Below are positions 28,851 to 59,646 of a stretch of DNA of 64,000 nucleotides, piece by piece (within the stretch, counting starts at the first letter, position 1; each line of letters begins with the position of its first letter). The notes under the pieces are model-generated. The model did not search any database, was not told where the DNA came from, and saw nothing but the letters and a program-made list of their open reading frames with translations. Origin of the DNA: a virus (Duplodnaviria; Caudoviricetes); IMG/VR virus record IMGVR_UViG_3300010429_000387, positions 224,001 to 288,000 of that record; one strand, written 5' to 3'. Position numbers and translations under genes: made by a program.

Positions 28851-30149
28851 ATGCACAATGATCTCCCTCTGATTCAGAAGGTCGCCCGTAGTTGGGCAAG
28901 ACTTTCCTTTGAAGACCGGTACGCACGCCTTCTCCTCTCGATGTCCTTGGAGCAGGCCAAGAGCATCCTGGGGTTCCCTCCTGGGTCCAACCCAACTCCA
29001 ACGGAGATCACCAAGGCGTATCGAGCAAAGGCTTTGGAGAACCACCCGGATCGTGGGGGTGACCACACGAAGATGGTGGAGATCAATGTTGCCAAGGACA
29101 TCTTGGAGGGGAAGGGTCGGGCCACCTGGACTCCCGAACCAGCCCCTCGACCCCCTCGTAGGGAGCCTCCGAAGGCACCTGAGCCAGACTTCGTGATGGA
29201 GGGTCAGACCTTCGATCAGGCTTGGTCTGGCAACTCGCCCCCCGCTGGGGTTGAGTGGAAGTTCGTCTCGGTTCCTGAATACTACTGGGAGAAGACCTAC
29301 TACCCAGGGCACCGGATCTGGACCCTCTACGGGCAGACCGACTCCAAGCACATCTTCCTCGCAATCAAGGAGCGTGGGGAGAGCGCTGGAACCATCCCTA
29401 CCGACAAGGGGATGTTCACCAAGATGATGGAGGACTGGCAGGTCTCCTGGGTGGACGTTCCTCTGTCCCAGAACATCTCCAAGATCGCTACGAAGTATCT
29501 CAAGTCGGTGAGTACCGGCTGGGCTGATGGCTCCAAGCCCAAGCCCCCCAAGAAGTTCATCGCTTGGCCTGGTGGACGCCCAACCGATCAGATCATCAAG
29601 AAGCTCCCTCGTTCTGGGGGGGCCGCTCTCAAGGACATCTTGGTTGGAACCGGCCTTCTCAATGACGAGGATCCCTCCATCGCAGGGAGGAAGAGCGTTG
29701 TTGAGATTTACACCAAGTACAGCAAGGAGAAGATCCAGCGTCGGAAGGCGGAGGGGGCCTTCAAGGACGGGGCGGACAGCTACGACTTCTTCGTCCGTGT
29801 CAACGGGAAAGACTGTCAGTTGTCAGATTCCACGGTGGAGAACCTCAAGAAGCGGTTCATCCCGTGGGTTCTCAACTGGGAGATTTCCGAGGGTCGCCCG
29901 AAGAACCTGACCCGGATGCGTGGTGGTGGTCTGAAGTACCCGGCCTCGGAAGCCATCCAAGCCCTGGCCGATGCTCTGACCAATGAGCCTTCCTGGCTTC
30001 ACCTGGCGCTCATCAAGGCGTCGGAGGAGTACGACTCGAACAACAAGTCGGCCTCGTTGGCTGAGATTCGGTGTTCAATGACACTGAAGCAGGCGTCGGT
30101 GATCACTGGGATCCCGATGTACGACCTGTTCATGGTGCTCCATGGTTGA
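28851..30149 (+). CDS. J-domain (DnaJ-like) protein
   Basis: AKSILG...EITKAYRAKALENHPDRGGD...EINVAKDIL is a J-domain with an intact HPD motif. Confidence 0.8.
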   Translation: MHNDLPLIQKVARSWARLSFEDRYARLLLSMSLEQAKSILGFPPGSNPTPTEITKAYRAKALENHPDRGGDHTKMVEINVAKDILEGKGRATWTPEPAPRPPRREPPKAPEPDFVMEGQTFDQAWSGNSPPAGVEWKFVSVPEYYWEKTYYPGHRIWTLYGQTDSKHIFLAIKERGESAGTIPTDKGMFTKMMEDWQVSWVDVPLSQNISKIATKYLKSVSTGWADGSKPKPPKKFIAWPGGRPTDQIIKKLPRSGGAALKDILVGTGLLNDEDPSIAGRKSVVEIYTKYSKEKIQRRKAEGAFKDGADSYDFFVRVNGKDCQLSDSTVENLKKRFIPWVLNWEISEGRPKNLTRMRGGGLKYPASEAIQALADALTNEPSWLHLALIKASEEYDSNNKSASLAEIRCSMTLKQASVITGIPMYDLFMVLHG

Positions 30150-30717
30150 TCCGACCCCTGCCCCGACCGAGAAGTCCTTCGGAGAACGCACCTGGGAAGC
30201 CTTCAAGGCTACCATGGGCAAGCTCTGGGACTTCATCCGCTGGCTCAGTCCCAAGACCCTTGGGGTGATCCTGGCTGTGGTGGTCGTGGTGGGGGCCATC
30301 CTTCTCATCTCGATGGGCTTCAAGGAGCTTCAGGTTGGTGGGCTCCTTGGTTGGCTCCTGGGCAAGAAGCCCGCTGACGGGTCCAAGACCATTGAGATTG
30401 CCAACACAGTGGACCCCAAGAGGGTGGACAAGGATGGGAATCTCATCCCCATCGGGAAGCCAGACTCGAAGGGTGATACTCAGGCAGTGGTCGTTCCAAT
30501 CCAGGAGCCTGGGTTGTTCTCGGACCCCAAGACGGTGGTCTTCACCCCTCCCGGAGAGACCAAGCCCATCGAGGTGGTTCTCCCAGATGGGGTCACCAAC
30601 AAGGACGTGGACCAGGTCATCGTGGTCACTCCAAGCGTGATTGCGGTTACGGTCAAAGACAACTCTGGTGTACCTGCTCAGAAGGTTGATGATCTTCTGA
30701 AGAAGTATGGTGGATGA
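30142..30717 (+). CDS. membrane-anchored protein
   Basis: Strong TM helix LGVILAVVVVVGAILLISMG followed by a soluble domain. Confidence 0.65.
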   Translation: MVDPTPAPTEKSFGERTWEAFKATMGKLWDFIRWLSPKTLGVILAVVVVVGAILLISMGFKELQVGGLLGWLLGKKPADGSKTIEIANTVDPKRVDKDGNLIPIGKPDSKGDTQAVVVPIQEPGLFSDPKTVVFTPPGETKPIEVVLPDGVTNKDVDQVIVVTPSVIAVTVKDNSGVPAQKVDDLLKKYGG

Positions 30718-30992
30718 TGCCCAGCTCCAGCCCCCTCGATCAGTTCATCGCCTCCCGAGTCAAAGCCCGGTTTGCAGCCAAGGATACCGAGGAGAAGGAC
30801 AAGAAGAAGCTCCTGATGGCTATCTACAAGCGGATGCCCATCGGGAACAAGCATCTTCGTGGTGGCAAGCACACCATCATGTTCTCTGGCTCGTCTGCCA
30901 AGGAATACGGGGTAGACAACTACACTAGCGTCGTCCTCGAAGAGCTTTCGATGGAAGAGCTGAAGAAAGCAGCCAAGGCCGTCGGGGCCTGA
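30714..30992 (+). CDS. small protein with N-terminal PLDQFIASRVKARF tag
   Basis: 92 aa, ATGA overlap with the upstream gene; N-terminus shared with 31002. Confidence 0.7.
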   Translation: MMPSSSPLDQFIASRVKARFAAKDTEEKDKKKLLMAIYKRMPIGNKHLRGGKHTIMFSGSSAKEYGVDNYTSVVLEELSMEELKKAAKAVGA

Positions 30993-31001
30993 AGGATCGT
31001 C

Positions 31002-31898
31002 ATGAAACCTGAACTCAATCCTCTCGATCAGTTCATTGCCGCCCGAGTCAAGGACAGGTTTGCCTCCTCAACCAAGGTGGCTGATGTCAACGACTACCCG
31101 GCAGCCTACAACGCCACCAAGTCGGCTGATGCTGCTATTGCTGGGCTCATCACCACCTCCAAGCGGTATGAGAGTGCAGCCAAGTCGGCCCTGGCGGACC
31201 TCGCCAAGGCGGTGGACGGCATCCCGGCTGGTCTGGAGAAGCTCGGGGTCAGCCCCAAGGGCCTTCAGAGGTACCAGACCCAGGCAGTGAACTTGATCAA
31301 GGCTGCTCAGAAGGGCCACCCACTACGGGCCTACAGCACCTACAAGAGTGATGCTCCGATCAGCAAGCTCCAGAAGGTCCTGGTCACGCTCGGGAGTGCA
31401 GCCTTGAAGTCTTCGGGGGTTGGGACCAAGATTCTCAAGCCGGTCATGGTCCAGCACCTCTTCAAGACGGACGTGGCTCCGTCTCTTGATGCCCTCAAGA
31501 GTGCCTGTGATGACTGGTACGAGTCGGCAAGCAACGCCTCTCATGAGATCGAGCGATCCATTTCAGCCGGTGGTTGGCTTGCTGCTGAGCCAACCCGTTC
31601 TGGGTTCGGACCAGATCCAGAGTGGGAGAAGTATGCCAAGGCCCAGAGGGAGTTTGCCAAGGAAGCTCACGACCTGGCAGACATCGTCCGCCACAATGCC
31701 ATCGGGCTCCCCCTGGCAGCCTCCTCGTTCGAGGATTGCGTGGATGTGGACGTGTGCCTCAAGACCATGGGCAAGGCTTGTACGGACCTCCTCAAGCTCC
31801 ACGAGAAGTTCGGCAAGGAGTGGGGTGACTTCCGGTCCAAGCTCCAAGACAAGGAGACCACAGGTCAGCGCTCCTTGTTCGCCAGATCGGAGGGGTGA
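31002..31898 (+). CDS. helical protein with N-terminal PLDQFIAARVKDRF tag
   Basis: 298 aa, Ala/Lys-rich, AAGGA upstream. Confidence 0.7.
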   Translation: MKPELNPLDQFIAARVKDRFASSTKVADVNDYPAAYNATKSADAAIAGLITTSKRYESAAKSALADLAKAVDGIPAGLEKLGVSPKGLQRYQTQAVNLIKAAQKGHPLRAYSTYKSDAPISKLQKVLVTLGSAALKSSGVGTKILKPVMVQHLFKTDVAPSLDALKSACDDWYESASNASHEIERSISAGGWLAAEPTRSGFGPDPEWEKYAKAQREFAKEAHDLADIVRHNAIGLPLAASSFEDCVDVDVCLKTMGKACTDLLKLHEKFGKEWGDFRSKLQDKETTGQRSLFARSEG

Positions 31899-32506
31899 TG
31901 GCTCGGATCCTGGCACTCTTGACGGTCCTTGGGTTCTTGCTCGGGGCTTCCCCGGTCATGGCCCAGGGGACCTGTGATGCAGGGTCAACCTGTGTCCCTC
32001 CTGAGGACCTGAAGGTCTTCGTCCAGCTCCTCAAGGACAAGAAGTGCCAGCAGACCACCCAACCCACCTTCAAACTGGACCCAGTCAACATCGTGGTGGA
32101 CCAGGATGGCCGGGTCTACTACTCCGGGGCTGAGCCCCACCCCTACACTCTTCGGATGAGCTGGTGCAACTACGAGGTGACCGCCACTGGGAAGGTGGAC
32201 CTCGTAGTTGCCAAGAAAGAGCCCCCCACTTGGGGGTTCCGATTCCGGCCCAAGTTTGCTGGGAGCTTCCTCTTCGTAGACGCTTTCGAGCGCCCTACCG
32301 CTGCTGAAGCTGTTGATGTCGGTTTTCTTTGGGAATTTCTCTACTGGAAGTCCCTGAACCTCAACCTTGCCACCGGATTCAGGTCGGCTGGTGCTGGGGT
32401 CGGCTTCGATGTGACCAAGAACTTCGGTGTCTATGGGGGTTACGCCTTTTCTTGGTGGACTCTGAAGCACAACCCTCAGGCCGGGCTGTACTTCGCTTTC
32501 TGGTGA
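31895..32506 (+). CDS. secreted protein with outer-membrane beta-strand-like C-terminal domain
   Basis: Signal peptide (MARILALLTVLGFLLGASPVMA); amphipathic aromatic strands; ends AGLYFAFW. Confidence 0.6.
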   Translation: MMARILALLTVLGFLLGASPVMAQGTCDAGSTCVPPEDLKVFVQLLKDKKCQQTTQPTFKLDPVNIVVDQDGRVYYSGAEPHPYTLRMSWCNYEVTATGKVDLVVAKKEPPTWGFRFRPKFAGSFLFVDAFERPTAAEAVDVGFLWEFLYWKSLNLNLATGFRSAGAGVGFDVTKNFGVYGGYAFSWWTLKHNPQAGLYFAFW

Positions 32507-32521
32507 ACTCGGAGGGTCATC

Positions 32522-32701
32522 ATGGGTGCTAATGAAAAGCAGCAGCTATCTGAGCTGAAAGTAGAGGCAGAGCAGTTCCGGAAGGCCGTCGAAGACCTCC
32601 ATGAAGTAGTCACCACCCTGAGCGAGGCATCTCCAACAGAATCCGGGTTGCGGCTCACAGGGTCGGTAAAGGCTCAGGATCCGGTGTATCAAGTGGCCTG
32701 A
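32522..32701 (+). CDS. small coiled-coil protein (59 aa, not in the ORF track)
   Basis: MGANEKQQLSELKVEAEQFRKAVEDLHEVV...; GGAGG at 32511; its TGA overlaps the ATG of the helicase. Confidence 0.55.
   Translation: MGANEKQQLSELKVEAEQFRKAVEDLHEVVTTLSEASPTESGLRLTGSVKAQDPVYQVA
32682..32688 (+). promoter_or_regulatory. CGGTGTA promoter motif
   Basis: 12 nt upstream of ATG 32701; recurrent oriented motif. Confidence 0.6.
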
Positions 32702-34440
32702 TGCCCGAAGCTACACCCACTGTTTCGCCCGCCGAACGGTTCAAGCAGGTCTACGAGCAGCTCCAGAAGGTTCGAGCGAGCAAGACCGTAGAGCTGAAGC
32801 CGACCAAGATGCTCCGTGAGACCATCACGGGTTTCGACGGAACCCTCCAGCCACTCAAGCTCAGGTACTACCAGGCCCAAGGAATCTACCACCTCTTGGT
32901 GGTCTCCCGGATGGTTCTGGGGGATGGGACCGGCCTAGGGAAGACCGTCCAGGCTCTTGGAGCCCTCTGCTACGTCTGGGATCGGGACCCAGAGTACAAG
33001 GTCATGGTGGTCTGTCCCAAGTCCGCCATCGGGCAGTGGGCTTCGGAGATCGACAAGTTCACCCTTGGGGTGAAGTGGTTCATTGCCTCGGGTACTGTTC
33101 AGCAACGGATTGCTGCTTACCAGGCGTGGGAGAAGCATGTAGGCCCAGCAGTCTTGATCGTGAACTACCACGGCCTGGTCCGAGACTGGGACCATGGGAT
33201 CAAGAAGGAGGCTCCCCCTCCTGGGTCGAAGCCAGGTACCCAGCCGACCTTGGGTCGAGGTCTTCTCGATGCCATGACGTTTCGATTCCCGAAGCTCACG
33301 GTCATCTTCGATGAGGCCACGGCATTCAAGAACCCGAGCACGAAGACCCACCAGACCTGCAAGTTCCTCTCCCAGAGGGCCAAGAAGGTCTGGGGTCTCA
33401 CGGCAACCCTCCTCAAAAACAACTTGATGGAGGGCTTCGGCATCTACAAGGTCATCCGACCGGAGACCTTCAGCACCAAGAGTGCCTTCCTCGACACCTA
33501 TTGCGTCACCGAGCTTCAGCGGGTCAAGGGAGGGGGCAAGATTCCCATCGTGGTCGGGTACCGAAACCTGGAGCACTTCCGAAAGACCATCGACCCTTTC
33601 TTCTACGGGAGACCCAAGCACGCTGTCTCTACTGAACTCCCGGCTCTCACCACCCGAGAGATCACCTGCGAACTGTCCCCAGTTGAGGATAAGAAGTACG
33701 CTGAGGCTCTTGCCGGAATCCTGGAGATGGGTGACGGAGAGCTTCGGGACTACACTGATACCAAGCAACTCACGAGCCTCATCTACGCCCAGGAGGTCTG
33801 TGACTCTCTCGGGCTTCTCAAGTTTGAAGATGGTGACGAGGTTGGGGACCATGCCTTCGAGGGTCGAAGCTCGAAAGAGTCTGCCTTGGTGGACCTCATC
33901 ACCGAGGAGTTCGACGGTGAGAAGGTCATCATCTACACCCGCTTCGAGAAGCTGGTGGGACGCCTTCAGAAGATCCTAGCCAAGGAAGGGATCAGGAGTG
34001 TTGCCATCACCGGCAAGGTGAACAAGGCGGCTGACCGAAAGAAGGCCCAGGACCAGTTCCAGGACCTCAACAGCAAGGTCTCGGTCATCTTCATCACTGA
34101 CGCCGGGAGTGAGGCCATCAACCTTCAGGCGGCCTCCGCCATGGTCTTCTTCGATACCCCTTGGAGCTGGGGGAACTACGTCCAACTCCTTGGCCGAATG
34201 ATCCGAATCGGGTCTCCCCACCAGAACGTTCTGGCAATTCACCTCATCGCTCGAAGGCCCGGTCAGAAGGGCAAGAAGAGTGAGACCATCGACCACAAGG
34301 TCGTCCAAAAGCTCCGCCGGAAGAAGGGGCTCATCGACCAAATCATCGGTGAGGCAGCCGTTGGGGCCTTGAAGTTCGAGCGTGGTGAAGGTGACCTCAA
34401 GGAACTGCTGCATTCCATCAAAGAAGACGCTCGGGGCTGA
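32701..34440 (+). CDS. SNF2-family (SF2) helicase
   Basis: LRYYQ, GDGTGLGKT, DEAT, LTAT, EAINLQ and QLLGRMIRIG motifs. Confidence 0.9.
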   Translation: MPEATPTVSPAERFKQVYEQLQKVRASKTVELKPTKMLRETITGFDGTLQPLKLRYYQAQGIYHLLVVSRMVLGDGTGLGKTVQALGALCYVWDRDPEYKVMVVCPKSAIGQWASEIDKFTLGVKWFIASGTVQQRIAAYQAWEKHVGPAVLIVNYHGLVRDWDHGIKKEAPPPGSKPGTQPTLGRGLLDAMTFRFPKLTVIFDEATAFKNPSTKTHQTCKFLSQRAKKVWGLTATLLKNNLMEGFGIYKVIRPETFSTKSAFLDTYCVTELQRVKGGGKIPIVVGYRNLEHFRKTIDPFFYGRPKHAVSTELPALTTREITCELSPVEDKKYAEALAGILEMGDGELRDYTDTKQLTSLIYAQEVCDSLGLLKFEDGDEVGDHAFEGRSSKESALVDLITEEFDGEKVIIYTRFEKLVGRLQKILAKEGIRSVAITGKVNKAADRKKAQDQFQDLNSKVSVIFITDAGSEAINLQAASAMVFFDTPWSWGNYVQLLGRMIRIGSPHQNVLAIHLIARRPGQKGKKSETIDHKVVQKLRRKKGLIDQIIGEAAVGALKFERGEGDLKELLHSIKEDARG

Positions 34441-34443
34441 CCT

Positions 34444-34450
34444 CGGTGTA
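34444..34450 (+). promoter_or_regulatory. CGGTGTA promoter motif
   Basis: Intergenic, 12 nt upstream of ATG 34463. Confidence 0.6.
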
Positions 34451-34462
34451 TAGGGGGTAGCT

Positions 34463-38166: not shown

Positions 38167-38174
38167 TAGAGGGA

Positions 38175-47618: not shown

Positions 47619-47643
47619 ACCAACTCAAAGCCATGGACTACTG

Positions 47644-48172: not shown

Positions 48173-48180
48173 ATCCCCGT

Positions 48181-48480: not shown

Positions 48481-48485
48481 GGGGC

Positions 48486-49031
48486 ATGGTAAAGCCCCGT
48501 TTTCTTGTGGATGCTGACGAAGTTCTGTTCGACCTCCAAGGTCCTGTTTTGGACATCATGGCGGAGGTGACGGGGCGTCAGTACCGACCCGAAGACTTCG
48601 AGGTCTGGGACCTCTTCTCCGTTCTCACAGAGGTCGAGAAGGCTAGGGTCTTTGACCGGATGGATGCACCTGGTTTCTGTGACTCGCTTCAACCCTTTCC
48701 CGAGGCTGTAGCGGCACTTGAAAGGGTCCGAAGGCACGCTGAGGTGATTGCGGTCACGAGCCCGTATCACGGACCTCTGTGGGTCTACGAACGGAGCAAC
48801 AGTCTCAAGCGGCACTTCGGCTTCGCCAAGAACCAGGTTGTCCACACCTCGGCCAAGTACCTCGTTCGGGGGGCCTTCTTCCTGGATGACAAGCCAGAAC
48901 ACGTCACTTCTTGGGCGGCTGAGAACCCAGAGGGTTGCTCGATGCTCTGGCACACCCCCAACACCAGGACTCTCGGGCTTGACCATCTTCGGGTCTTCTC
49001 CTGGGACCAAGTCCTGGCAAAGGTTGCCTGA
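48486..49031 (+). CDS. HAD-family 5'(3')-deoxyribonucleotidase (NT5C-like)
   Basis: VDADEVL, VTSP, K and FLDDKPEH motifs. Confidence 0.85.
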   Translation: MVKPRFLVDADEVLFDLQGPVLDIMAEVTGRQYRPEDFEVWDLFSVLTEVEKARVFDRMDAPGFCDSLQPFPEAVAALERVRRHAEVIAVTSPYHGPLWVYERSNSLKRHFGFAKNQVVHTSAKYLVRGAFFLDDKPEHVTSWAAENPEGCSMLWHTPNTRTLGLDHLRVFSWDQVLAKVA

Positions 49032-49786
49032 TGCCACTCCCCCACATCAGAACAGGCATTGCCGAGCTTGATGTTGCCCTGGGTACCGAGTGTCCAGGGT
49101 TCCCTCGGGGGGCCTTGACCCTTATTTGTGGCGGGGTTGGAACCGGGAAGTCAACTCTGGTCCGGCATCTGGCCCACTATGCAGCAACCATAGGGCACCA
49201 ACGGGTGCTCTTCTGTGATGCTGAGGGGAACCCGCCAGGCCGACATTCAAGTCTCATCCGTGAGGTAGGGGTTGATGGTCCAGTCGATGTTGTTCCAGGT
49301 TCATACACTTCTCCTTTTGATTATCAACAACCAAGTGACCTGGTGGGGCTATTCAATGCCATCCGAGCTTCAGTTCACCTGTATGACCTCATCATAGCGG
49401 ATGCCGTCAGCGTTCTAGGGTTGCCTCCAACTCCAGGGCAGGCTCCACAGATTGCGGCTAGGTCTAGGTTTCTCGGGTCGGCTATTCAGGGGTTGCGGTT
49501 GGAGAACTGTGCCCTGGTGATGGTCTTCCAGAGCCCGAGGAGTGGTCCTTTGGATCGGGGAGTCAACTCCCAACTTGTGACCCACCATGCCCGGCTGATC
49601 CTCGACCTTAGTGGGTTCACCGAAGGGGTGTACTCAGCACACATCGCCAAGGCGACCTGGCCGGTACAGGACGAGGAGTTCGGGTTCCGATATGGGGGTC
49701 CGAGTCAAGTCATTGCCGTCCCAAAGGCCAAGCCCATCGACCGATCCAAAATCCCCACCCGCTTCAACCGAGAGGATCCCCTATGA
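49031..49786 (+). CDS. RecA/RadA/KaiC-superfamily ATPase
   Basis: TGIAELDVALG...GFPRG...GGVGTGKS and LIIAD; ends PTRFNREDPL. Confidence 0.75.
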   Translation: MPLPHIRTGIAELDVALGTECPGFPRGALTLICGGVGTGKSTLVRHLAHYAATIGHQRVLFCDAEGNPPGRHSSLIREVGVDGPVDVVPGSYTSPFDYQQPSDLVGLFNAIRASVHLYDLIIADAVSVLGLPPTPGQAPQIAARSRFLGSAIQGLRLENCALVMVFQSPRSGPLDRGVNSQLVTHHARLILDLSGFTEGVYSAHIAKATWPVQDEEFGFRYGGPSQVIAVPKAKPIDRSKIPTRFNREDPL

Positions 49787-50946: not shown

Positions 50947-50951
50947 GGCAC

Positions 50952-51320
50952 ATGAAACAAGCCAGGATGCTGCATGAAGCCATCTCGGCCGCCAATCGTG
51001 GTGAGCGGGTGATTGTGACCGCTCACCACACGAGCCGAGCCCTTTGGATCAAGGGTGAGGCTCGCAAGGCGGTAGCCAATGCCCTCCTCCAACAGGAGGG
51101 TCAGGACTTCATGCGGTTCAAGTCTGGCGGAGAAATTCGATTCTTCGCCCACACCAAAGAGGAAAAGCTCCGAGGCTTCAGGGGTAAGGTCTACCAGATT
51201 CAAGTAGATAGCCCCTATGATGAGGGAGACTCTCTTGAGGACTGGGAGCTGGACTCAAGGTACCTTCCCCCGAGTGGGCCGCACCCAAGTAGGTTCGAGA
51301 GGATTCTGAATGAAGACTGA
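50952..51320 (+). CDS. hypothetical protein with C-terminal PSRFER tag
   Basis: 122 aa between thyA and folA; GAGG upstream. Confidence 0.65.
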   Translation: MKQARMLHEAISAANRGERVIVTAHHTSRALWIKGEARKAVANALLQQEGQDFMRFKSGGEIRFFAHTKEEKLRGFRGKVYQIQVDSPYDEGDSLEDWELDSRYLPPSGPHPSRFERILNED

Positions 51321-52190: not shown

Positions 52191-52195
52191 GAAGG

Positions 52196-52204
52196 TTTCT
52201 ATCA
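52196..52204 (+). promoter_or_regulatory. T-rich putative late-promoter element (TTTCTATCA)
   Basis: Intergenic, heads the 52254-56013 island. Confidence 0.3.
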
Positions 52205-52253
52205 GCCTTGCCTTGGTGACCCATCTGACGACGGTGCCAAGGGAGACCTTCTC

Positions 52254-54032
52254 ATGTTCCTACTGCTAGCTGCTTCCGGTAAGAGAGCCCGTGTTCTGAC
52301 CGCCTCTCTTGGAGACGACATCCTCATCAGCCCCGCTATGGATGAGGCTGATGAACTGGAGGAGGGTCTGGCTGACATCGACGAAGCTATTCGTCGGGAG
52401 AAAAACCCCAGGAGCGGACCCTACTGGCCCAAGATCAGGGCAAAGTTGCTCGAAGAGTCCTCCTCCCAGGACATCGACGAAGCCATCAAGGAATGGGGGC
52501 GAGATGGGCTCCCATACATCTCCCGTGAGTCCTGCCAGCTCTGTGGCAAGACCCCCATCAAGTTCTGCTTCCCGCTCAAGAACCGGATGAACGGGTCCCG
52601 GCTCGTTGTCGGGTGCGAATGCGTCCACAACTACCTTGAGATCGGTGGGTACGAATCTCCGGAAGCCCTCCGGAAGCTCTTGGTCGCTCAGCTCAACATC
52701 CTTCGGAAGAAGGAGAAGGGTGAGGCCACGGACGAGCAGGTGGAAGCTGCTACCAAGGTCTTCGAGATCGAGCACCAGATCCGTAGGCGGATTGCGGTGG
52801 TCTCAGGAGGGGCCACCGACTTCGACATCAAGGAGTACCAGGAGTCGCTCAACAGCGTCATCCTGGTGGCAAATCACCTTGAGGTGAAGGACGCCTCGAT
52901 AGCGGCTGCCCGAAGTGCCATGACTCTCATCAAGCCGGTTCTCTCCTTCATGGAGAAGACACGGGCCAAGCAGAAGTTCGTTGGGTTCGGCATCGGGGTG
53001 CTCACCACCACCATCATGAACCAGCGTAGCCCCGAGAAGAAGGCTGCCAACCTGGAAATCCTTCTCTCTGCGATCAGCAGGCTCTTCGACTGTGGGCTCC
53101 CCTCGGACACCCTTTCCCGAGCCTGGGGTTCGGTCAGTCTTGCCAAGAACAAGCTGGTCGATATCGTGGCAAAGAAGTGCGATACCGGGAAGGCAGAACT
53201 CCTCTCCGACTATCGGAACGAGATTGCCATCACCAAGCCCCATGAGCACCTGAGCTTCATGATCACTCAGGGGATTGATGCTCTCCGAAAGACCTTCGAT
53301 GCCCAACTGGAGAAGGTCAGGGCGGCAGTTGAGGACCCTGACTTCATTGAGAAGATCCAGTCCGAAGCCTCGGTGGTGGCGAAGATCCTCAACTTCAGCT
53401 TCTCCCCGGATCTTGCCAGCTCGGACAATGTCGTTCAACGGAACGCCTACAAGATCATCGAGTTCGTTCAGTCGGTGAACAAGGGCAAGGGTGCCGTTGA
53501 CGTTATCGTGGATGCCATCCAGGGGACCTATGCCTTGGAGGGTGCCATCAAGGACCGGGTTGGGGTGAAGGTCTCCATTCTCCGAGCAGGAGATGATGGG
53601 GTCATCGACCCGGATGTGATGGGTGACGATTCCATCCTCGACTTCGGGAAGCTCATCCGGGCCAGGGACCCCAAGGCCCTGGAGATCGTCCAGAAAGAGG
53701 TTGAGGACGTTGCCCTCTTGGTGAAGAGCACCAACAACCAGAGGGTCTTCGAGCTGATGAGTGACCAGCTCGACTTCGATGTGGAACGTGCGTTCAAGCT
53801 CTACACGGCGACCCCGAACCCCAACTCGAAGTCCCCTACCTTCGAGCTTGACTTCTGCACCTCCATCCTGAGTGATTGGGAAGCTGGTCGCCTGAGCAAG
53901 CTGAGCCCAGCTCGTATGGGCAACATCCAGCGGCAGATCGCCATGAAGGGACGGATGAAGGAAGTCCCCAACTCGATGTGGGAGAAGCTCAAGTCCAGGC
54001 TGACCGCCAAGGCCAAGTCTACCTTCCGCTGA
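52254..54032 (+). CDS. Zn-finger-containing helical protein
   Basis: CQLCGK...NG..LVVGCECV; 592 aa. Confidence 0.75.
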   Translation: MFLLLAASGKRARVLTASLGDDILISPAMDEADELEEGLADIDEAIRREKNPRSGPYWPKIRAKLLEESSSQDIDEAIKEWGRDGLPYISRESCQLCGKTPIKFCFPLKNRMNGSRLVVGCECVHNYLEIGGYESPEALRKLLVAQLNILRKKEKGEATDEQVEAATKVFEIEHQIRRRIAVVSGGATDFDIKEYQESLNSVILVANHLEVKDASIAAARSAMTLIKPVLSFMEKTRAKQKFVGFGIGVLTTTIMNQRSPEKKAANLEILLSAISRLFDCGLPSDTLSRAWGSVSLAKNKLVDIVAKKCDTGKAELLSDYRNEIAITKPHEHLSFMITQGIDALRKTFDAQLEKVRAAVEDPDFIEKIQSEASVVAKILNFSFSPDLASSDNVVQRNAYKIIEFVQSVNKGKGAVDVIVDAIQGTYALEGAIKDRVGVKVSILRAGDDGVIDPDVMGDDSILDFGKLIRARDPKALEIVQKEVEDVALLVKSTNNQRVFELMSDQLDFDVERAFKLYTATPNPNSKSPTFELDFCTSILSDWEAGRLSKLSPARMGNIQRQIAMKGRMKEVPNSMWEKLKSRLTAKAKSTFR

Positions 54033-54042
54033 GGCCAACTCA

Positions 54043-54804
54043 ATGCAAGTTGCAACCATTCAGTTTGCCCCAGTTTTTCGCCAGAAGGCGGAGAATCTAC
54101 GTCGCCTAGCCACCCTGGTCATTCAGGCGGCTGAGGCGGGGGCCAAACTCATCGTACTCCCAGAGCTGGCGACCACAGGCTACACGTACATGAGCAAGGC
54201 GGAAGCGGAAGCTGACGCTGAGGTCATCACGGAGTTCAAGCCCGGTTCGGGTGGACCTACCTCCACCATGAACGTCATGTGGGCACTAGCCAGCAAGTAC
54301 GACATCCACTTGGTTTGGGGCATGGTCCGCAAGGACTATGGGACCGGCAAGGTGTTCAACAGCCAGGTATACCTCGAACCAAGCGGGTACTTCGAGTTCT
54401 ATGACAAGGTGAACCGCTGGGGCAACGACTACATCTGGGCGACCCCTGGGCAGACCAATCCTCCAGTCATCACGGCTGAGGGTCTTGGGGGTCTCCGGGT
54501 GGGGATGCTCATCTGTCGGGACATCCGGGACAAGAAGGACGAGAACTGGAAGAACTTCTACTCCCCTGGGGATGCCGATGTGGTTTGCCTCTCGACCAAC
54601 TGGGGTGACGGGGGTTTCCCAGCGGTCTCCTGGATGGACTTCGTTGAGGACAACAAGGCGACCCTCATCGTCTCCAATCGCTACGGACAGGAAGGTCCGA
54701 ACGACTTTGGGGAGGGTGGAGTCTGTGTCGTCACCAAGAGCGGCGAGGTCCTGTGTGAGGGTCTTGTCTGGAGTTCTGATTGCATCGTCTACGCAGAGGT
54801 TTGA
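54043..54804 (+). CDS. carbon-nitrogen hydrolase (nitrilase superfamily)
   Basis: E-K-C triad motifs LPELA, YDK and ICRD; also NRYGQE. Confidence 0.88.
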   Translation: MQVATIQFAPVFRQKAENLRRLATLVIQAAEAGAKLIVLPELATTGYTYMSKAEAEADAEVITEFKPGSGGPTSTMNVMWALASKYDIHLVWGMVRKDYGTGKVFNSQVYLEPSGYFEFYDKVNRWGNDYIWATPGQTNPPVITAEGLGGLRVGMLICRDIRDKKDENWKNFYSPGDADVVCLSTNWGDGGFPAVSWMDFVEDNKATLIVSNRYGQEGPNDFGEGGVCVVTKSGEVLCEGLVWSSDCIVYAEV

Positions 54805-54805
54805 G

Positions 54806-55066
54806 ATGCCCCACGACTACGACCGTACTACGACTGCCGGTGTGAACTTCAACCAGATGGTTGGCAAGCCTGCTGAGGCGGATGAGGCCCTCACCAAAGC
54901 ATACCAGGCCCTCGTGAACTTCAAGCTGGGCATGGATGCCATGCACGAGATCCCTGCCACCCTGAAGCCTTACTACCAGCAGGTGATGAAGGCCATGGAC
55001 GTGGTGATCAAGGCCCAGAAAGAGTCCTACCAGCTCCGCATGATGATGAGGAAGCTCCCTCTCTGA
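54806..55066 (+). CDS. small helical protein
   Basis: ATG 54806 follows the previous stop (MPHDYDRTTTAG...); 86 aa. Confidence 0.65.
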   Translation: MPHDYDRTTTAGVNFNQMVGKPAEADEALTKAYQALVNFKLGMDAMHEIPATLKPYYQQVMKAMDVVIKAQKESYQLRMMMRKLPL

Positions 55067-56013
55067 TGGACCCGATCACCCTCACCGTCCTTGAGCGCTA
55101 CATCCTAGGGTACCCACCCCCTGGGATGGCTACACGGGTTGCCAGACGCTTCGTAGCTGGTCTGGCTGACCAGCTTCAGAGAATGATGGGCGACCTTCTA
55201 GGGAGCACCCTGGAGGCCAAGAAGGGCAAGGATGTAGCTGAGTGGCTGGAGGCCAACTTCCACTTCCTTGGGACCAAGACCCCCAAGGGCGGGAAGGTGC
55301 TCAAGGACCAGGTGAACAAGCTCCACTGGTTCCTGAAGTTCGGCCTCGGTCAGCAGCAGGATCCGGAGCGGCTTCGCCCTACCATCGAAGCAGCCTGGTC
55401 GGACATCCAGAAAGAGTTGGGTACCCTAGTCAAGCTCTTCTCCGAGGAGGGCGGGAAGGTCGTGCCCAAGGAGATGAAGGTTGGGGCCAACACCTACCTG
55501 AACATCTCGGGGTTCTCCGAAGACCAGCTCACCACCTACATCAAGAGCCTCGAACAGGTCTTCGCTGAGCTGAAGGGCTGGAGGAAGAAGGCCCTGGCCG
55601 GGGGACTCAAGGTTGCCCTGGCGGGACCCTCCGACTTCCGAGGCACCTCGGGCGGGAAATACAAGTCGAGCGAGGACACCCTCTATGTCAGGGCAACCCC
55701 CGCTGTCCTCAAGCGGACCCGTGGTTCCTACGGAGCCTTCGACTACATCATCGTACATGAGCTGGGTCACCGGTACGACTACAAGCGGAAGCCGGGCATA
55801 GACTTCGACCGACCCGAGTGGTGGACCAGCAGGTACAGCCGAACCGAGGGGGAGAGCTTCGCTGAGTTGTTCGCCCTGACCAACTTCGGGATCACCGGGC
55901 AAGGGGACCAGGCGGTCCTCGACAAGTTCGAGGATTACATGACCACTGGAAAGGTTCCCGAGACTGAGCCGGTGGAGCTGCCAGACCACCTGAAGCGGCT
56001 TCTCGGCAAGTAG
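55066..56013 (+). CDS. zincin-like metallopeptidase domain protein
   Basis: HELGH plus downstream ESFAE; N-terminal ATRVARRF tag. Confidence 0.7.
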   Translation: MDPITLTVLERYILGYPPPGMATRVARRFVAGLADQLQRMMGDLLGSTLEAKKGKDVAEWLEANFHFLGTKTPKGGKVLKDQVNKLHWFLKFGLGQQQDPERLRPTIEAAWSDIQKELGTLVKLFSEEGGKVVPKEMKVGANTYLNISGFSEDQLTTYIKSLEQVFAELKGWRKKALAGGLKVALAGPSDFRGTSGGKYKSSEDTLYVRATPAVLKRTRGSYGAFDYIIVHELGHRYDYKRKPGIDFDRPEWWTSRYSRTEGESFAELFALTNFGITGQGDQAVLDKFEDYMTTGKVPETEPVELPDHLKRLLGK

Positions 56014-56044
56014 TGTCGAATCGACCTCTAGTTTCTCGACGTTC

Positions 56045-56051
56045 CGGTGTA
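56045..56051 (+). promoter_or_regulatory. CGGTGTA promoter motif
   Basis: CGGTG-TATGAT, 9 nt upstream of the clpX ATG; no SD. Confidence 0.65.
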
Positions 56052-56060
56052 TGATCGGTC

Positions 56061-58388
56061 ATGCCTAGCCCGATCAAGTGCTCGTTCTGTGGCCGTCCTC
56101 GGAACGAGGTCAAGAACATCATTGCTGCCGACTCTGAGGCTGGCCCCTTCATTTGCAACCGTTGTGTGGAGACGGCAGCCAACGAAATCAAGGCTGGGGC
56201 AAAGAGGGGTGGCTTCGAGCAGAAGAAAGAGGATCCCCTTCGCAAGCCGAGGGAGATCCGGGACTACCTAGACCAGTACGTGATCGGGCAAGACCAGGCC
56301 AAGGTGGACATTGCAATCGCAGTGTACAACCACTTCAAGCGTCGGAAGCTCCGGGACGCCAAGCCTGAGGATGGCATCGATCTGGTCGAGATCGAGAAGA
56401 GCAACATCTTGCTCCTTGGGCCATCGGGTTGCCATCGTAAGGGTCAGCTTGTCTTGATGTATGATGGTACCCTGAAAGCGGTGGAGAACGTCCAAGTTGG
56501 GGACCAACTCATGGGGCCTGACTCCACTCCTCGAAATGTGCTGGAACTTCATAGGGGGGTGGAGGAAATGGTTGAGATTGTGCCCCTCAAGGGTGAGCCC
56601 TGGGTGGTCAACCGGGGGCACATTCTGACGCTGGTTCGTACTTGCTACAACGGTGGTTCTGGGTACCGTCCTGTAAACGAGGTCAAGGATGTACCCCTTC
56701 GTGATTGGCTTGGTTGGTCAAGGACTCAGAAGTCAGTTCACAAGCTGTTTCGTGTACCTGTCGAGTTCAAAGCACAGGAGGAGCTACCACTGGACCCATA
56801 CTTTCTGGGCGTCTTGCTTGGTGATGGGTCACTCGGTGTGACTCCCCGAGTCACCACCGAAGACCCAGAAATCCTTGAGGAAACTCGTAGGCAGGCGGCC
56901 AACTTCGGTTTGGTCGTCTCTATCTACGACTACAATGAGGAGAAGTGCCCCTCCTATGCCCTGTGTAAGGTAGAGGGTCCAGGTGGTCTCCAAGACGAGG
57001 CTTCTCGCAATCCTATTGCACAGAGGTTGGCGGGTCTGGATCTTCTGGAAGTGACGGGTGAGTCCAAGTTCATCCCTCACTGCTACAAGGTATCCTCCAG
57101 AGCAGATCGACTGGCAATCCTTGCGGGGCTCCTGGACACTGATGGATCCCTTGATGAGGACGGGTGTGGTTTCGACTTCATCAACAAGTCCAAAGAGCTT
57201 GTTGATGACCTGGCCTTCATCGCTAGAAGCCTTGGTTTTGCTTGCTATCCTCAGCCATGTGTGAAGGGGTGCCAGACTGGGGTGGAGGGCATCTACTACC
57301 GGATGTTCATTTCTGGTGACGTGGCTGAGATTCCAACCAAGGTTGAGAGGAAGAAGGCCCTTGCTCGGAAAGCCATCAAGAATGTGCTTCGGACAGGGTT
57401 CAAAACCCGTGACCTACCCCCGGAGGAATACTTCGGGTTTGTCCTCGATGGGGACCACCGTTACCTGCTTGACGACTTCACTGTGACCCATAATACGGGC
57501 AAGACTCACATTGCCAGGACCATCGCTCGGATGCTTCAGGTCCCCTTCCATGTTGGTGACGCCACCCGGCTGACCCAGGCTGGCTACGTCGGGGATGACG
57601 TGGAGACCCTTCTTCAGGGGCTCGTCCTGGATGCTGGGGGCGACATCGAGCGGGCACAGTGGGGGATCATCTTCCTCGATGAGGTGGACAAGATCGCCCG
57701 AGGTTCTGGCCGGGACAGGGCTGGGTACCGAGACGTGTCGGGAGAGGGGGTCCAGCAGTCCCTCCTCAAGCTCCTCGAAGGTTCGAGGGTCAACGTCCCC
57801 CGTGGTGGCGGAAAAGCTGGGATGATGATGGCATATGACACCATCGACACTACCAACATCCTGTTCATCTGTGCTGGTTCCTTTGCTGGGATCGAACCCA
57901 TCGTGGCCCAGAGGGTGAACAAGGGGTCGGCTCGTCTCGGGTTTGGGGCCAACACAGAGAAGAAGAAGCTCGACCTGTCGGCCTCCTACCTGGCTGCCAA
58001 CGAAGACGACATCATGGAGTTCGGCATCATTCCCGAGATGATGGGCCGTCTCCCGGTCATCACCACGACCATCGAGCTTTCCGAGGATGAGATGATTCGG
58101 GTTCTCACCGAGCCCCGGAACAGCATCATCAAGCAGGTGAAGAGCCTGTTCCAGATGGACGGTGTCTGCCTGGACTTCACGGAGGATGCTCTGAGGGCCA
58201 TCGCTCGGGAAGCCAAGAAGCGCCCAACTGGGGCACGGGCACTTCGGAGCATCGTCGAGAAGACCCTGAAGACCTTTGCCTATGACACCCCCAGCAACGA
58301 GACTATCGAGCGGATCCTTGTGACTGAGGACACCGTGAATGGTGGGCAGGGGGTTATCACTCTTCGGGAGCAGCGAGCAGAGGCGTGA
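56061..58388 (+). CDS. clpX: ClpX AAA+ unfoldase with intein
   Basis: CSFCG..CNRC zinc domain, VIGQ, GPSG/TGKT, GYVG, DEVDK, RDVSGEGVQQ, LGF loop and GARALR; 420 aa after splicing. Confidence 0.93.
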   Translation: MPSPIKCSFCGRPRNEVKNIIAADSEAGPFICNRCVETAANEIKAGAKRGGFEQKKEDPLRKPREIRDYLDQYVIGQDQAKVDIAIAVYNHFKRRKLRDAKPEDGIDLVEIEKSNILLLGPSGCHRKGQLVLMYDGTLKAVENVQVGDQLMGPDSTPRNVLELHRGVEEMVEIVPLKGEPWVVNRGHILTLVRTCYNGGSGYRPVNEVKDVPLRDWLGWSRTQKSVHKLFRVPVEFKAQEELPLDPYFLGVLLGDGSLGVTPRVTTEDPEILEETRRQAANFGLVVSIYDYNEEKCPSYALCKVEGPGGLQDEASRNPIAQRLAGLDLLEVTGESKFIPHCYKVSSRADRLAILAGLLDTDGSLDEDGCGFDFINKSKELVDDLAFIARSLGFACYPQPCVKGCQTGVEGIYYRMFISGDVAEIPTKVERKKALARKAIKNVLRTGFKTRDLPPEEYFGFVLDGDHRYLLDDFTVTHNTGKTHIARTIARMLQVPFHVGDATRLTQAGYVGDDVETLLQGLVLDAGGDIERAQWGIIFLDEVDKIARGSGRDRAGYRDVSGEGVQQSLLKLLEGSRVNVPRGGGKAGMMMAYDTIDTTNILFICAGSFAGIEPIVAQRVNKGSARLGFGANTEKKKLDLSASYLAANEDDIMEFGIIPEMMGRLPVITTTIELSEDEMIRVLTEPRNSIIKQVKSLFQMDGVCLDFTEDALRAIAREAKKRPTGARALRSIVEKTLKTFAYDTPSNETIERILVTEDTVNGGQGVITLREQRAEA
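56430..57494 (+). mobile_element. intein with LAGLIDADG homing endonuclease (355 aa) in ClpX Walker A
   Basis: Starts CHRKGQ; block B NRGHIL; LLGDG and LAGLLDTDG motifs; ends VTHN followed by Thr. Confidence 0.92.
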
Positions 58389-58439
58389 TTGACGGTTGAA
58401 ACTTTCTGAGCTGGGTCGTTGTAGAAGTACCTCTGGATC

Positions 58440-58448
58440 TTTTGATAG
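58440..58448 (+). promoter_or_regulatory. T-rich putative late-promoter element (TTTTGATAG)
   Basis: Intergenic, heads the 58475-59721 island. Confidence 0.3.
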
Positions 58449-58474
58449 AGACCTAGTGGTAGGAGACCCAGCTC

Positions 58475-59152
58475 ATGAGCCTTTCGATCATCGCCAACGT
58501 AGTGTCCCGCTACGCTGCCTCGACCCGCACTGCTGGGTTGAAGGAAGTGACCTTCAAGGAGTTCCAGCAGGCGCTCGCCAACGCTGGTTGGCCTTCCCCT
58601 GAATATGCCCACACGAAGCGGACCATGGATGCCTACTACAAGGACCGTGGGACCGAGGTGGCGCACAAGACCCAGATCCTCACCCGTGGCAAGGTGACCC
58701 AAGAGCACTTCTATGCCAACCCAGATTACCTTGGTGAGGGGAATTCCAAGGAAGCAGCCACGAACATCGTGGTCCTGGATGACGATGACCTTGAGGGCCT
58801 TGATGAGAAGGCCAAGAAGGCTTGGAAGGGCTACACCTACAAGATGACCTATGAGGTTGTCTCCCCGGAGTCGGCCGAAGAGGGTGACGCTGAGGATCGT
58901 GGGTGGGAAGAGGAGGGCTCGGAGCCCTACGACACCCTGGAAGAGGTCCTCAAGGCGGTGGATGACAAGTCCTGGCTTGAGTGGTCCTCCAGCAGCCCGG
59001 ACGGGAAGCGTGACTGGATCATCTCCCAGGCTGAGGAAGACTACAGCTCGGGGAACAACACCACCTATCACCTCTGGATCGAGCGCAAGGACGGCAAGCC
59101 TCTCGGAAAGGAAGAACTGGCCTACATCAAGAAGTCCCTTCGGCTTCACTGA
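58475..59152 (+). CDS. acidic phage protein with N-terminal IANVVSRY tag
   Basis: AGGAG SD; TYEVVSPESAEEGDAEDRGW segment. Confidence 0.75.
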   Translation: MSLSIIANVVSRYAASTRTAGLKEVTFKEFQQALANAGWPSPEYAHTKRTMDAYYKDRGTEVAHKTQILTRGKVTQEHFYANPDYLGEGNSKEAATNIVVLDDDDLEGLDEKAKKAWKGYTYKMTYEVVSPESAEEGDAEDRGWEEEGSEPYDTLEEVLKAVDDKSWLEWSSSSPDGKRDWIISQAEEDYSSGNNTTYHLWIERKDGKPLGKEELAYIKKSLRLH

Positions 59153-59166
59153 GTAGGAGCAGTTCC

Positions 59167-59646
59167 ATGCCGACTCCGGTTGACAAATACTACGAGGAAG
59201 TAAAGGACAAGAACCCTTCCTACAGTGAGGAACAGGCTTGGGCAACGGCTTGGAGCATCTACTGCAAGCACGTCAATCCAGGCTCGAAGTCTTGCAAGAA
59301 ACCACCCTCGGAGTACCTGAAGGGGAAGTCTGCCTCAGACCCACTCCAGGACTTCCAGGATGTGCTGATGGCAAGGAGAGTTGCCTCCAGATTCAAGGAA
59401 TCCTTCAAGTACGAGCAGAAGGAAACCAAGGAACACAAGGTCGAGAGAATCTCCAAGAAGATTCGAGATGCTACGGGTCTCTCGAAGGGGGTCTCAGAGG
59501 CCATTGCTGACGCCTTCGTCCGAGGGCGTGAGGTGGCTCGCCTTGCCATTCAGAAGGGCTGGCCCTTGGATGGGGACATCATCGAGGGTCCAACTGGGAC
59601 CCTCTCCTTGGAGGCGATCAAGACAGCTTCTCGTGAGGGAGAGTAG
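59167..59646 (+). CDS. ChaB-like domain protein with internal ARRVASRF tag
   Basis: EEQAWATAWSIYCK resembles ChaB; AGGAG SD. Confidence 0.6.
   Translation: MPTPVDKYYEEVKDKNPSYSEEQAWATAWSIYCKHVNPGSKSCKKPPSEYLKGKSASDPLQDFQDVLMARRVASRFKESFKYEQKETKEHKVERISKKIRDATGLSKGVSEAIADAFVRGREVARLAIQKGWPLDGDIIEGPTGTLSLEAIKTASREGE

Follow-up and report, generated by a model that had tools for sequence, protein, structure and literature searches.

In phage T4, the internal proteins IPI-III and Alt carry a capsid targeting sequence, are loaded into the scaffolding core and are injected (PMC3012670; PMC5512222). In phage P1, an N-terminal stretch of about 30 residues of DarB suffices for capsid loading of an enzyme or a reporter (PMC9024508), and the Dar cargo includes the zincin-bearing DdrB (PMC9024508; PMC5512222). 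Encapsulin Family 2 cargo bears helical N-terminal motifs, of which LARLANEFFS is an example (PMC8049743). Finally, phages and conjugative elements encode polyvalent proteins (Iyer, Burroughs, Anand, de Souza, Aravind 2017), for which packaging, injection together with the DNA and cutting into modules have been predicted; in those of phages, zincin-like peptidases are the commonest domain (PMC5512222).

The window analysed here is a stretch of 64,000 nucleotides (positions 224,001 to 288,000 of the IMG/VR virus record IMGVR_UViG_3300010429_000387) within a contig of 129 kb. A preliminary description had claimed that unrelated proteins in it share an N-terminal tag, which it took for a candidate capsid-targeting signal. 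Indeed, seven proteins of the contig contain a peptide of 14-18 residues with the consensus phi-x-x-phi-phi-A-x-[R/N]-V-A-x-R-[F/Y] (22-34 bits). A position matrix made from the tag instances was scanned over all six frames of the contig, and exactly seven sites reached at least 26 bits, each of them in frame and on the strand that carries the gene. Across 200 shuffled proteomes, the mean top score was 9.2 bits (95th percentile 13.7, maximum 22.9); correctly aligned instances scored 14-35 bits when left out in turn. Exact RVxxRF occurs six times in the six frames, each time on the plus strand: four of these are sites claimed earlier, another is out of frame within the gene 23349-27968, and the sixth falls upstream of the window. 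The tag columns are sharply restricted, with one position held by V or I and never by L or M, and an invariant Arg followed by F or Y, and the motif is strongly kept across tens of percent of body divergence. Since the codons of the conserved Arg and Val differ from copy to copy, the repeat is a protein-level feature and not a DNA or RNA element, and selection acts on the tag peptide. The sites in the window and the features that accompany them are the following.

28860..28901, plus strand: borderline tag-like peptide DLPLIQKVARSWAR, residues 4-17 of the J-domain protein 28851-30149; 12.6 bits
30738..30779, plus strand: tag core DQFIASRVKARFAA, residues 9-22 of the 92-aa protein 30714-30992; 33-39 bits
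31026..31067, plus strand: tag core DQFIAARVKDRFAS, residues 9-22 of the 298-aa protein 31002-31898; 31-38 bits
31074..31082, plus strand: K-V-A in the linker after the 31002 tag; [K/R]-x-A kept in 17 of 17 orthologues
52278..52319, plus strand: GKRARVLTAS..., claimed weak form of the tag in 52254-54032; rejected
55066..55107, plus strand: possible first, degenerate copy MDPITLTVLERYIL at the extreme N-terminus of the zincin 55066-56013; 8.7 bits
55117..55158, plus strand: tag core PPGMATRVARRFVA, residues 18-31 of the 315-aa zincin 55066-56013; 22-28 bits
56061-58388: phage-encoded ClpX, between tagged genes
58478..58519, plus strand: tag core SLSIIANVVSRYAA, residues 2-15 of the 225-aa protein 58475-59152; 24-27 bits
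58526-58534, plus strand: R-T-A after the 58475 tag
59326..59334, plus strand: K-S-A at the boundary of the two domains of 59167-59646, immediately upstream of the internal tag
59341..59400, plus strand: long-form tag PLQDFQDVLMARRVASRFKE, residues 59-78 of the 159-aa protein 59167-59646, between its domains; core 31-34 bits

By matrix score, five of the seven sites listed in the preliminary description are strong, that in the J-domain protein 28851 is borderline and that in 52254 is no tag. The 28851 score is close to chance, as about 1.8 proteins reach 12 bits randomly across four proteomes; a J-domain paralogue (G002_225709) has an N-terminal tag of 19.7 bits, and the orthologue of 28851 (G002_219353) a C-terminal one of 27.8 bits. 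The peptide in 52254 scored -28 to -45 bits at its claimed register, with a best value of -8.4 in the first 54 residues, and is unconserved in the orthologue G002_211756. Outside the window, the same contig has a tag at residues 12-25 of a 480-aa protein (73977-75419) and another at residue 350 of 426 in a J-domain paralogue (-46430..-45150).

The 31002 tag is nearly invariant among 17 orthologues. An AlphaFold model of this protein has a helix at residues 7-24 (pLDDT about 65), a linker below 50 and a helical-bundle body above 90 from residue 32, and the family ends in a conserved Q-x-S-L-F tail that resembles a sliding-clamp-binding motif; such a tail could serve an injected protein as well. 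In the zincin 55066, residues 1-30 have a pLDDT below 50 and the folded body, above 90, begins at about residue 31, so that in both models the tag region (pLDDT <50-65) is a flexible extension outside the fold. RVA[R/A]RF is retained by most close orthologues of the zincin, and at the position of its degenerate first copy the close orthologues P0143, P0145 and L083 score 24-26 bits, giving two tandem copies. The strong core of 59167 (residues 65-78) is internal; G002 and G001 encode its two domains by separate genes, the downstream one beginning with the tag. The 92-aa protein 30714-30992 and the 225-aa protein 58475-59152 have no orthologue in G002.

The tag is shared across a clade of huge phages whose capsid proteins fall into more than 2000 clusters at 90% identity and whose contigs reach 620 kb. 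Four related genomes hold 43 sites of at least 17 bits against a null of about 0.2-0.4, and independent scans found the tag in three related huge-phage genomes. With a matrix trained on G000 and G002 only, eight sites of at least 11 bits were recovered in the 485-kb phage LR745208.1 (null 0.8) and 14 sites in G001 (null 0.35). A different, C-terminal peptide of the present genome, [T/S]RF[D/E/S]R[I/V]L, was not found in LR745208.1 or G001, and the tag described here thus has the wider reach. The tag starts within 31 residues of the N-terminus in 29 of the 43 sites (67% vs 10.7% expected), while about one third of tags are internal or C-terminal; tandem copies occur, and orthologues may bear the tag at opposite ends. 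The residue that follows F/Y is Ala in 4/7 tags of G000 and 1/22 of G002 and W01 (P=0.007), and Leu in none of the 7 and 12 of the 22, respectively (P=0.02). Such drift by lineage across unrelated proteins suggests a common reader. The tag is absent from the cultured Tunturiibacter phage Tunturi_5, which has homologous portal, terminase, protease and capsid genes. Thus the central claim of the preliminary description, a real, portable and mostly N-terminal peptide on unrelated proteins, is borne out by the matrix scans, the AlphaFold models and conservation in the clade, and so is the claim of unrelated bodies, since BLASTP at E<1e-5 found no mutual similarity among them except between J-domain paralogues.

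Several carriers are zincin proteases of the lethal-factor type; the others are a type IB topoisomerase, J-domain proteins, a protein resembling RelA/SpoT, and unknowns. Most carriers are single-domain proteins of 90-580 residues, and some orthologues are fused with one additional domain. HExxH is present in 8/42 tagged vs 20/1127 untagged proteins (odds ratio 13, P=3e-6). In the zincin 55066, HELGH at residue 231 and an E-x-F-A-E helix are invariant in 56 orthologues; its model (pLDDT 88.7) has HExxH and the downstream Glu on a zincin fold, and Foldseek gave weak matches to lethal-factor, collagenase and M1 peptidase (probability at least 0.9, E 0.03-0.1). The tagged topoisomerase IB (PF01028, 3e-26) is encoded between the large terminase and the portal/protease in G002, G001 and LR745208.1; its tag is kept in all relatives with a readable N-terminus and has no K/R-x-A near it. 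A tagged gene of 129-135 aa lies directly upstream of the terminase genes. Within the window, the tagged genes stand among replication, nucleotide-metabolism, accessory and ClpX genes and not among head genes, and the scans found no tag in core replication enzymes.

The K/R-x-A tripeptides quoted in the preliminary description as possible cleavage sites are all present in the sequences, and K/R-x-A is statistically linked to the tag. The tripeptide follows the tag by no more than 15 residues in 15/40 cases vs a background of 12%, and precedes internal tags by no more than 14 residues in 7/14 vs 11% (P=4e-4); in close relatives, 6 of 7 internal tags have it just upstream. In the 31002 family the tripeptide is invariant 6-8 residues past the tag in 17 orthologues, sits in the low-confidence linker and has flanking residues that vary. 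At the boundary of 59167, G-K-x-A-[S/A] is conserved in G002_222101 and W01_462348, and G001_614 has R-E-A-A. The majority of tags have no K/R-x-A nearby. In the head module, [K/R]-x-A-[S/A] is enriched 1.9-fold (P=0.018), with six sites in a Q-rich scaffold-like protein and two within residues 1-27 of the capsid protein; this excess is modest, and K/R-x-A is a short motif.

Head proteins were scanned for the tag itself, as the preliminary description had proposed, and no tag-like peptide was found in the scaffold, protease, capsid protein, portal or terminase. The Pfam family of the T4 gp21-type prohead protease (PF03420) had no match in G000, G001 or G002, and none in control genomes either; the protease candidate of the clade is 39% identical to gp331 of Tunturi_5, annotated as head maturation protease. 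G002 and LR745208.1 share 83% identity in the capsid protein, where the median over 56 shared proteins is 35.5% and the next best value 56%, a conservation that parallels that of the tag.

Like the T4 capsid targeting sequence, the tag is short, mostly N-terminal, portable, borne by unrelated accessory proteins and found near a protease-type motif. Unlike it, the tag has another sequence of 14-18 residues, has K/R-x-A as its candidate cut motif instead of L/I-x-Glu, also occurs internally, C-terminally and in tandem, and has no cut motif beside most copies. The P1 DarB signal is N-terminal too, serves a large enzyme and belongs to a system with a zincin among its cargo, but it is described for one protein and not for dozens. 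Encapsulin peptides are likewise short and are tethered through a flexible linker to either terminus of enzymes unrelated to one another; they need not be cleaved off and are recognised by the interior surface of an HK97-fold shell, and LARLANEFFS loosely resembles the tag in its A-R-phi-x-x-x-F pattern. By contrast, the candidate shell here is a DNA-filled phage capsid, and encapsulin peptides have no counterpart of the invariant Arg before F/Y. With polyvalent proteins the overlap is one of repertoire, lethal-factor-type zincins foremost along with other effector-like enzymes, whereas here most modules are separate small genes, each tagged, and not parts of one giant polypeptide, and neither a shared tag nor a K/R-x-A junction belongs to the description of polyvalent proteins.

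By analogy with the T4 and P1 signals, we tentatively favour the reading that the tag is a capsid-loading label by which enzymes would be loaded into the head. It would be a portable docking address, an amphipathic helix with a fixed face (phi, A, V, R, F/Y) that a flexible linker joins to its host protein, and one conserved phage-encoded partner may read it. This reader would be part of the head, our first guess being the capsid protein; the tagged accessory enzymes would enter the procapsid and reach the next host alongside the DNA, and a protease may separate modules or trim the tag at adjoining K/R-x-A linkers. The interpretation offered in the preliminary description is partly supported, namely in the portability of the tag, its N-terminal bias and its link to K/R-x-A. 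A connection with the head is suggested by the tagged topoisomerase IB and 129-135-aa genes beside the terminase genes, by K/R-x-A sites that flank tags and are enriched in the head module, and by the conservation of the capsid protein; the excess of HExxH among carriers matches the zincin-rich repertoire of polyvalent proteins. Counted against a strict T4-type signal are the internal and C-terminal copies, the sparse K/R-x-A, the untagged head proteins, the non-head gene neighbourhood and the rejected 52254 and marginal 28851 instances; head loading is further opposed by the absence of the tag from Tunturi_5 and by the clamp-binding-like tail of 31002, which would suit a cytoplasmic job. A specific, rather doubtful form of head loading resembles the encapsulins: the HK97-fold capsid protein would read an uncleaved helical tag anywhere in the cargo, and the capsid protein would be frozen at 83-97% identity because it reads the tag. 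The protease would then cut multi-module cargo apart at K/R-x-A junctions, and the head would hold a kit for the next host composed of topoisomerase IB, several zincin proteases and J-domain co-chaperones, the latter perhaps recruiting host Hsp70 to refold cargo unfolded for passage through the tail.

It is also quite possible that the docking site is instead a hub in the cytoplasm, a conserved phage machine or compartment active during infection, and that helper enzymes are recruited there; the replisome, the packaging motor (terminase/portal exterior), a filament such as the phage volactin or an unrecognised compartment would be examples. A linear motif that is active N-terminally, internally, C-terminally and in tandem is typical of hub docking, many tagged genes lie amid replication and accessory genes, and topoisomerase IB adjoining the terminase is a plausible helper tethered to the packaging motor. 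The tail of the 31002 family points the same way, and about 65 genes of G002 are common to the tag-bearing LR745208.1 and absent from the tag-free Tunturi_5, which leaves many non-head candidates for the reader. However, no hub candidate has emerged so far, the association with K/R-x-A, which is enriched in head proteins too, would go unexplained, and zincins and effector-like enzymes, not replication factors, prevail among the carriers, the core replication enzymes themselves being untagged. A tag with no common reader at all, that is, a linker, recombination joint or self-association helix spread by module shuffling and kept for structure, is unlikely. Module exchange does coincide precisely with tag boundaries, since the domain pair of 59167 is one gene here, two in G002 and separate tagged genes in G001; the adjacent 30714 and 31002 tags use similar codons; and the zincin tag continues directly into the first helix of the body, with distant orthologues keeping only a degenerate G-A-R-V-x-x-A-G-L. 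Yet a mere linker would not be expected to be N-terminally biased (67% vs 11%) or to be conserved with position-specific preferences while bodies diverge by tens of percent, and the lineage-wise drift after F/Y across unrelated proteins and the placement of the tag outside the folded body in both AlphaFold models likewise speak against it.

The phage ClpX, which is flanked by tagged genes and conserved in G002 at 72% identity, brings to mind a degron or adaptor motif read by ClpX or by J-domain/DnaK that would time the removal or unfolding of accessory proteins. ClpX-recognised signals occur at either protein end, and A-L-R-V in two tags recalls the tail through which SspB binds the zinc domain of ClpX. 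We consider ClpX very unlikely as the reader because LR745208.1 tags its topoisomerase IB, zincins and other proteins although ClpX, a J-domain protein and a Ycf46-like ATPase were undetected there (tblastn, E<1e-4); moreover, internal tags at domain junctions cannot act as terminal degrons, and the J-domain proteins are tagged themselves. Least probable of all is that the tag binds membranes as an amphipathic helix or directs export to the cell envelope. Basic and hydrophobic residues are mixed in the peptide, and 30714 and 31002 are clustered with membrane-protein genes, but the position preferences (V/I not L/M; fixed Ala and Arg) are too specific for lipid binding and the carriers include topoisomerase and J-domain proteins. 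Nor is the tag a Sec or Tat signal, since what follows it is a charged or polar linker, as in AAKDTEEKDKKK of 30714, and not a hydrophobic core.

If the tag is a loading signal, sequence by itself would name the proteins that accompany the DNA into the host in a very large and widespread clade of uncultured phages. To our knowledge, a predicted cargo of proteases, topoisomerase and co-chaperones is of a type not described for phage heads. The tag would then be a second natural packaging tag for bringing foreign proteins into capsids, with rules unlike those of T4: position-independent, tandem and with an Ala-type junction. If instead the reader is not the capsid, the tag would mark an unrecognised protein-sorting hub of huge phages.

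The preliminary description had proposed that unrelated proteins of this virus share a short N-terminal tag, and each of the peptides it quoted was found at the gene to which it had been assigned. Scanning the whole 129-kb contig that holds the window (G000) in six frames with a position matrix revealed seven sites of at least 26 bits, every one in coding frame. The best score in shuffled proteomes (n=200) averages 9, with a 95th percentile of 13.7; the shared tag is non-random. Two of the seven sites lie just beyond the window, in a 480-aa protein at 73977 and in a J-domain paralogue at -46430 (upstream of the window on the same contig). The J-domain protein at 28851 is a borderline instance, and the peptide at 52254, formerly read as a weak form, is not a tag. 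The bodies of the tagged proteins are mutually unrelated by BLASTP, as had been claimed, with the J-domain paralogues as sole exception. The tag consensus reads phi-x-x-phi-phi-A-x-[R/N]-V-A-x-R-[F/Y], and there is a longer form, P-L-x-x-F-x-D-A-L-phi-x-R-N-V-x-x-R-F. DQFIA may resemble the T4 leader, and ALRV the SspB tail. A DNA or RNA repeat is excluded because synonymous codons vary from copy to copy; since those for Arg and Val vary among copies, selection acts at the peptide level.

The virus record around the window (129 kb, ~27% complete, GC 58%) encodes all its genes on a single strand, and this contig has no capsid gene. Three relatives, all uncultured huge phages, were fetched whole: G002 (363 kb, 76% complete), G001 (183 kb) and LR745208.1 (485 kb). 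Gene order is largely syntenic between G000 and G002.

Features of the window and of related genomes (all genes of the record lie on one coding strand)
Window 1-28 kb: giant fibre-like genes
Window 28-60 kb: J-domain protein, helicases, DnaB-like helicase, family A DNA polymerase, AAA ATPase, thymidylate synthase, ClpX-like gene
Window 49031-49786 and 50952-51320, and several G002 genes: C-terminal tag (a second, separate tag)
Window 32682, 34444, 43193, 43416, 43883, 48165, 48468, 56045, 63888 and beyond: [C/T]GGTGTA box
L013:16778-17650 (piece of G002) and L036:14936-15808 (another genome piece): capsid gene

The capsid protein of the clade (290 residues, HK97-family) shares 37% identity with gp27 of phage G; with its counterpart in Tunturi_5, a cultured Tunturiibacter phage, identity is 47%. 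Its clusters in public data number more than 2000, on contigs of up to 620 kb, and each of the best 120 database clusters is at least 86% identical. At 83% identity between G002 and LR745208.1, versus a median of 35.5% over 56 shared proteins, it is an extreme outlier and by far the clade's most conserved protein. Third in this ranking (56%) stands an actin homologue of the volactin type, encoded by the phage itself (PF25216, 2.5e-72; L014:15449-16501 in G002). The large terminase has 1119 aa in G002 (79359-82718) versus 664 aa in G001 (128371-130365), and the head protease 982 aa in G001 (118164-121112) versus 568 aa in G002 (92958-94664), lengths that suggest mobile insertions (inteins) in the G002 terminase and the G001 protease. 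The ClpX-like gene (window 56061-58388, 775 aa) is 72% identical over its full length to its G002 orthologue (215735-218077, 777 aa) and is absent from LR745208.1 and Tunturi_5.

With a threshold of 11 bits, a matrix trained on G000 and G002 alone found 14 sites in G001, against a null of 0.35, and 8 in LR745208.1, against 0.8; an iterated census gave 43 sites of at least 17 bits; a six-frame scan of Tunturi_5 found no tag. In the census, 29 of the 43 start within residue 31 (expected 10.7%), three lie right at the C-terminus and the other 11 are internal. Among 17 orthologues of the 31002 protein the tag is near-invariant, with bodies down to 38-68% identity. AlphaFold2 predicts the 31002 tag as a separate helix (residues 7-24, pLDDT ~65), followed by a linker with pLDDT below 50, a confident helical bundle (32-285) and a disordered tail; in the model of the 55066 zincin, residues 1-30 have pLDDT below 50 and the confident body begins at about residue 31. 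The tag is modular. The 28851 J-domain protein has a G002 orthologue tagged C-terminally and another paralogue tagged N-terminally; the domains of 59167 are two genes in both G002 and G001, the tag opening each downstream gene; in LR745208.1, where the topoisomerase has an added HAD-like domain, the tag separates the two domains; and close zincin orthologues bear two copies in tandem.

The small N-terminal domain of 59167 (window 59167-59330; ...E-E-Q-A-W-A-T-A-W-S-I-Y-C-K-H...) heads different proteins in G002, G001 and LR745208.1, each recurrence being followed by K-x-A and then the tag. At G002 220680-223717 (L029:10680-13717) the segment E-A-L-K-E-Y-L-H-x-H-P-K-A-D-K-S-K-H-T-V-K-K occurs three times after tag-like helices in two adjoining proteins, one of which weakly matches RelA/SpoT, and at G001 177402-182729 several small tagged genes are interspersed with tRNA genes, their upstream regions resembling tRNA 3' halves. 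A separate C-terminal tag, P-[T/S]-R-F-[E/N/D/S]-R-[I/L] plus acidic residues, closes a number of small, mutually unrelated proteins of G000 and G002; no RF-x-R-[I/L] tag of this kind was found in G001 or LR745208.1, and the two tags therefore differ in range.

The carriers include a topoisomerase of type IB (PF01028, 3e-26) whose gene lies between the large terminase and the portal or protease; its tag is kept in all relatives with a readable N-terminus. Also tagged are three or four J-domain proteins, a RelA/SpoT-like protein (weak match) and a protein of 129-135 aa whose gene immediately precedes the terminase genes. HExxH occurs in 8 of 42 tagged versus 20 of 1127 untagged proteins (P=3e-6). 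The 55066 model has the fold of a zincin and weakly matches domains of lethal-factor, collagenase and M1 peptidase type, and zincin-type peptidases are the dominant type in phage 'polyvalent proteins' (PMC5512222). Tag-like peptides were found in none of the scaffold, protease, capsid protein, portal and terminase, and the tag itself on no replication enzyme or tail protein. Pfam and PHROGs matched neither most tagged proteins nor seven head-module proteins, and ESM Atlas leads (M90- or lethal-factor-type peptidase; LPD1) were all below 0.9. For the 31002 body, Foldseek returned nothing at E<=0.001 and a VIA wide search only generic helical bundles, with a best Z of 11.3 that is below the meaningful level for helical proteins. 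At their C-termini, proteins of the 31002 family have a disordered but conserved tail, G-Q-x-S-L-F-A-R (window 31863-31898; Q282, S291 and L292 near-invariant in 17 orthologues), resembling the bacterial sliding-clamp-binding motif Q-L-[S/D]-L-F.

In G000, G001 and G002 a [C/T]GGTGTA box, likely a promoter element, stands 14-60 nt ahead of many genes of replication or early type; by raw count it precedes only one of 14 tagged genes having their own upstream gap. A second box, GTTGAAA, lies upstream of 58475, a tagged gene, and of many small genes in G002. A motif of late-promoter type was not found.

The preliminary description had also pointed to K/R-x-A as a possible cut site. This tripeptide follows the tag within 15 residues in 15 of 40 cases (background 12-13%), is invariant in the 31002 linker, and lies within 14 residues upstream of internal tags in 7 of 14 cases versus 11% (P=4e-4; 6 of 7 within G000-G002). 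It recurs in zincin orthologues where an added small domain meets the tag. In the G002 head module, [K/R]-x-A-[S/A] is 1.9-fold enriched (P=0.018), the sites clustering in a Q-rich scaffold-like protein and in the first 27 residues of the capsid protein. A search for the T4 gp21 family (PF03420) was uninformative, being matchless everywhere, controls included. Because K/R-x-A is a short motif that is missing from most tags, we go no further than to infer that cleavage may occur at K/R-x-A beside tags.

We propose that the tag would be read by one specific protein partner, and not by lipid or DNA or as a mere linker. Sharp residue preferences, flexible attachment, position independence and tandem copies all argue for a single protein reader, as does the lineage-specific drift, across unrelated proteins, of the residue after F/Y (Ala in G000, P=0.007; Leu in G002 and LR745208.1, P=0.02). 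Phyletic profiling left ~65 G002 genes common to LR745208.1 and missing from Tunturi_5, too many to choose among; in all, G002 and LR745208.1 have roughly 96 proteins in common. Co-folding that paired the G001 capsid protein with the first 48 residues of the 31002 orthologue scored 0.00 and gave no answer, which speaks neither for nor against binding.

Our favoured reading, held tentatively, is that the reader may belong to the head: the operon for packaging and head proteins contains two conserved genes with the tag, K/R-x-A connects tags with head proteins, the cargo resembles known packaged effectors, and the capsid protein stands out as the clade's most conserved. That conservation would fit a need to keep recognising dozens of tags. 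The T4 CTS (PMC3012670), the P1 DarB signal (PMC9024508) and encapsulin cargo peptides (PMC8049743) serve as precedents. Against it, replication genes surround the window's tagged genes, many tag copies lack a putative cut site, and the 31002 tail appears clamp-binding-like. The main rival, in which the tag docks on a cytoplasmic hub, seems to us somewhat less likely. A phage ClpX or J-domain protein is unlikely as reader since LR745208.1 is tagged yet has neither gene by tblastn at E<1e-4, and ClpX was set aside on this ground.

Capsid- and compartment-targeting peptides are already known as a class. What is unusual in this tag is its position independence, its tandem copies and its Ala-type junction, together with a putative cargo set that has topoisomerase IB, J-domain proteins and a number of zincins among its members; what is new is the tag sequence family itself, in an uncultured yet very widespread clade.
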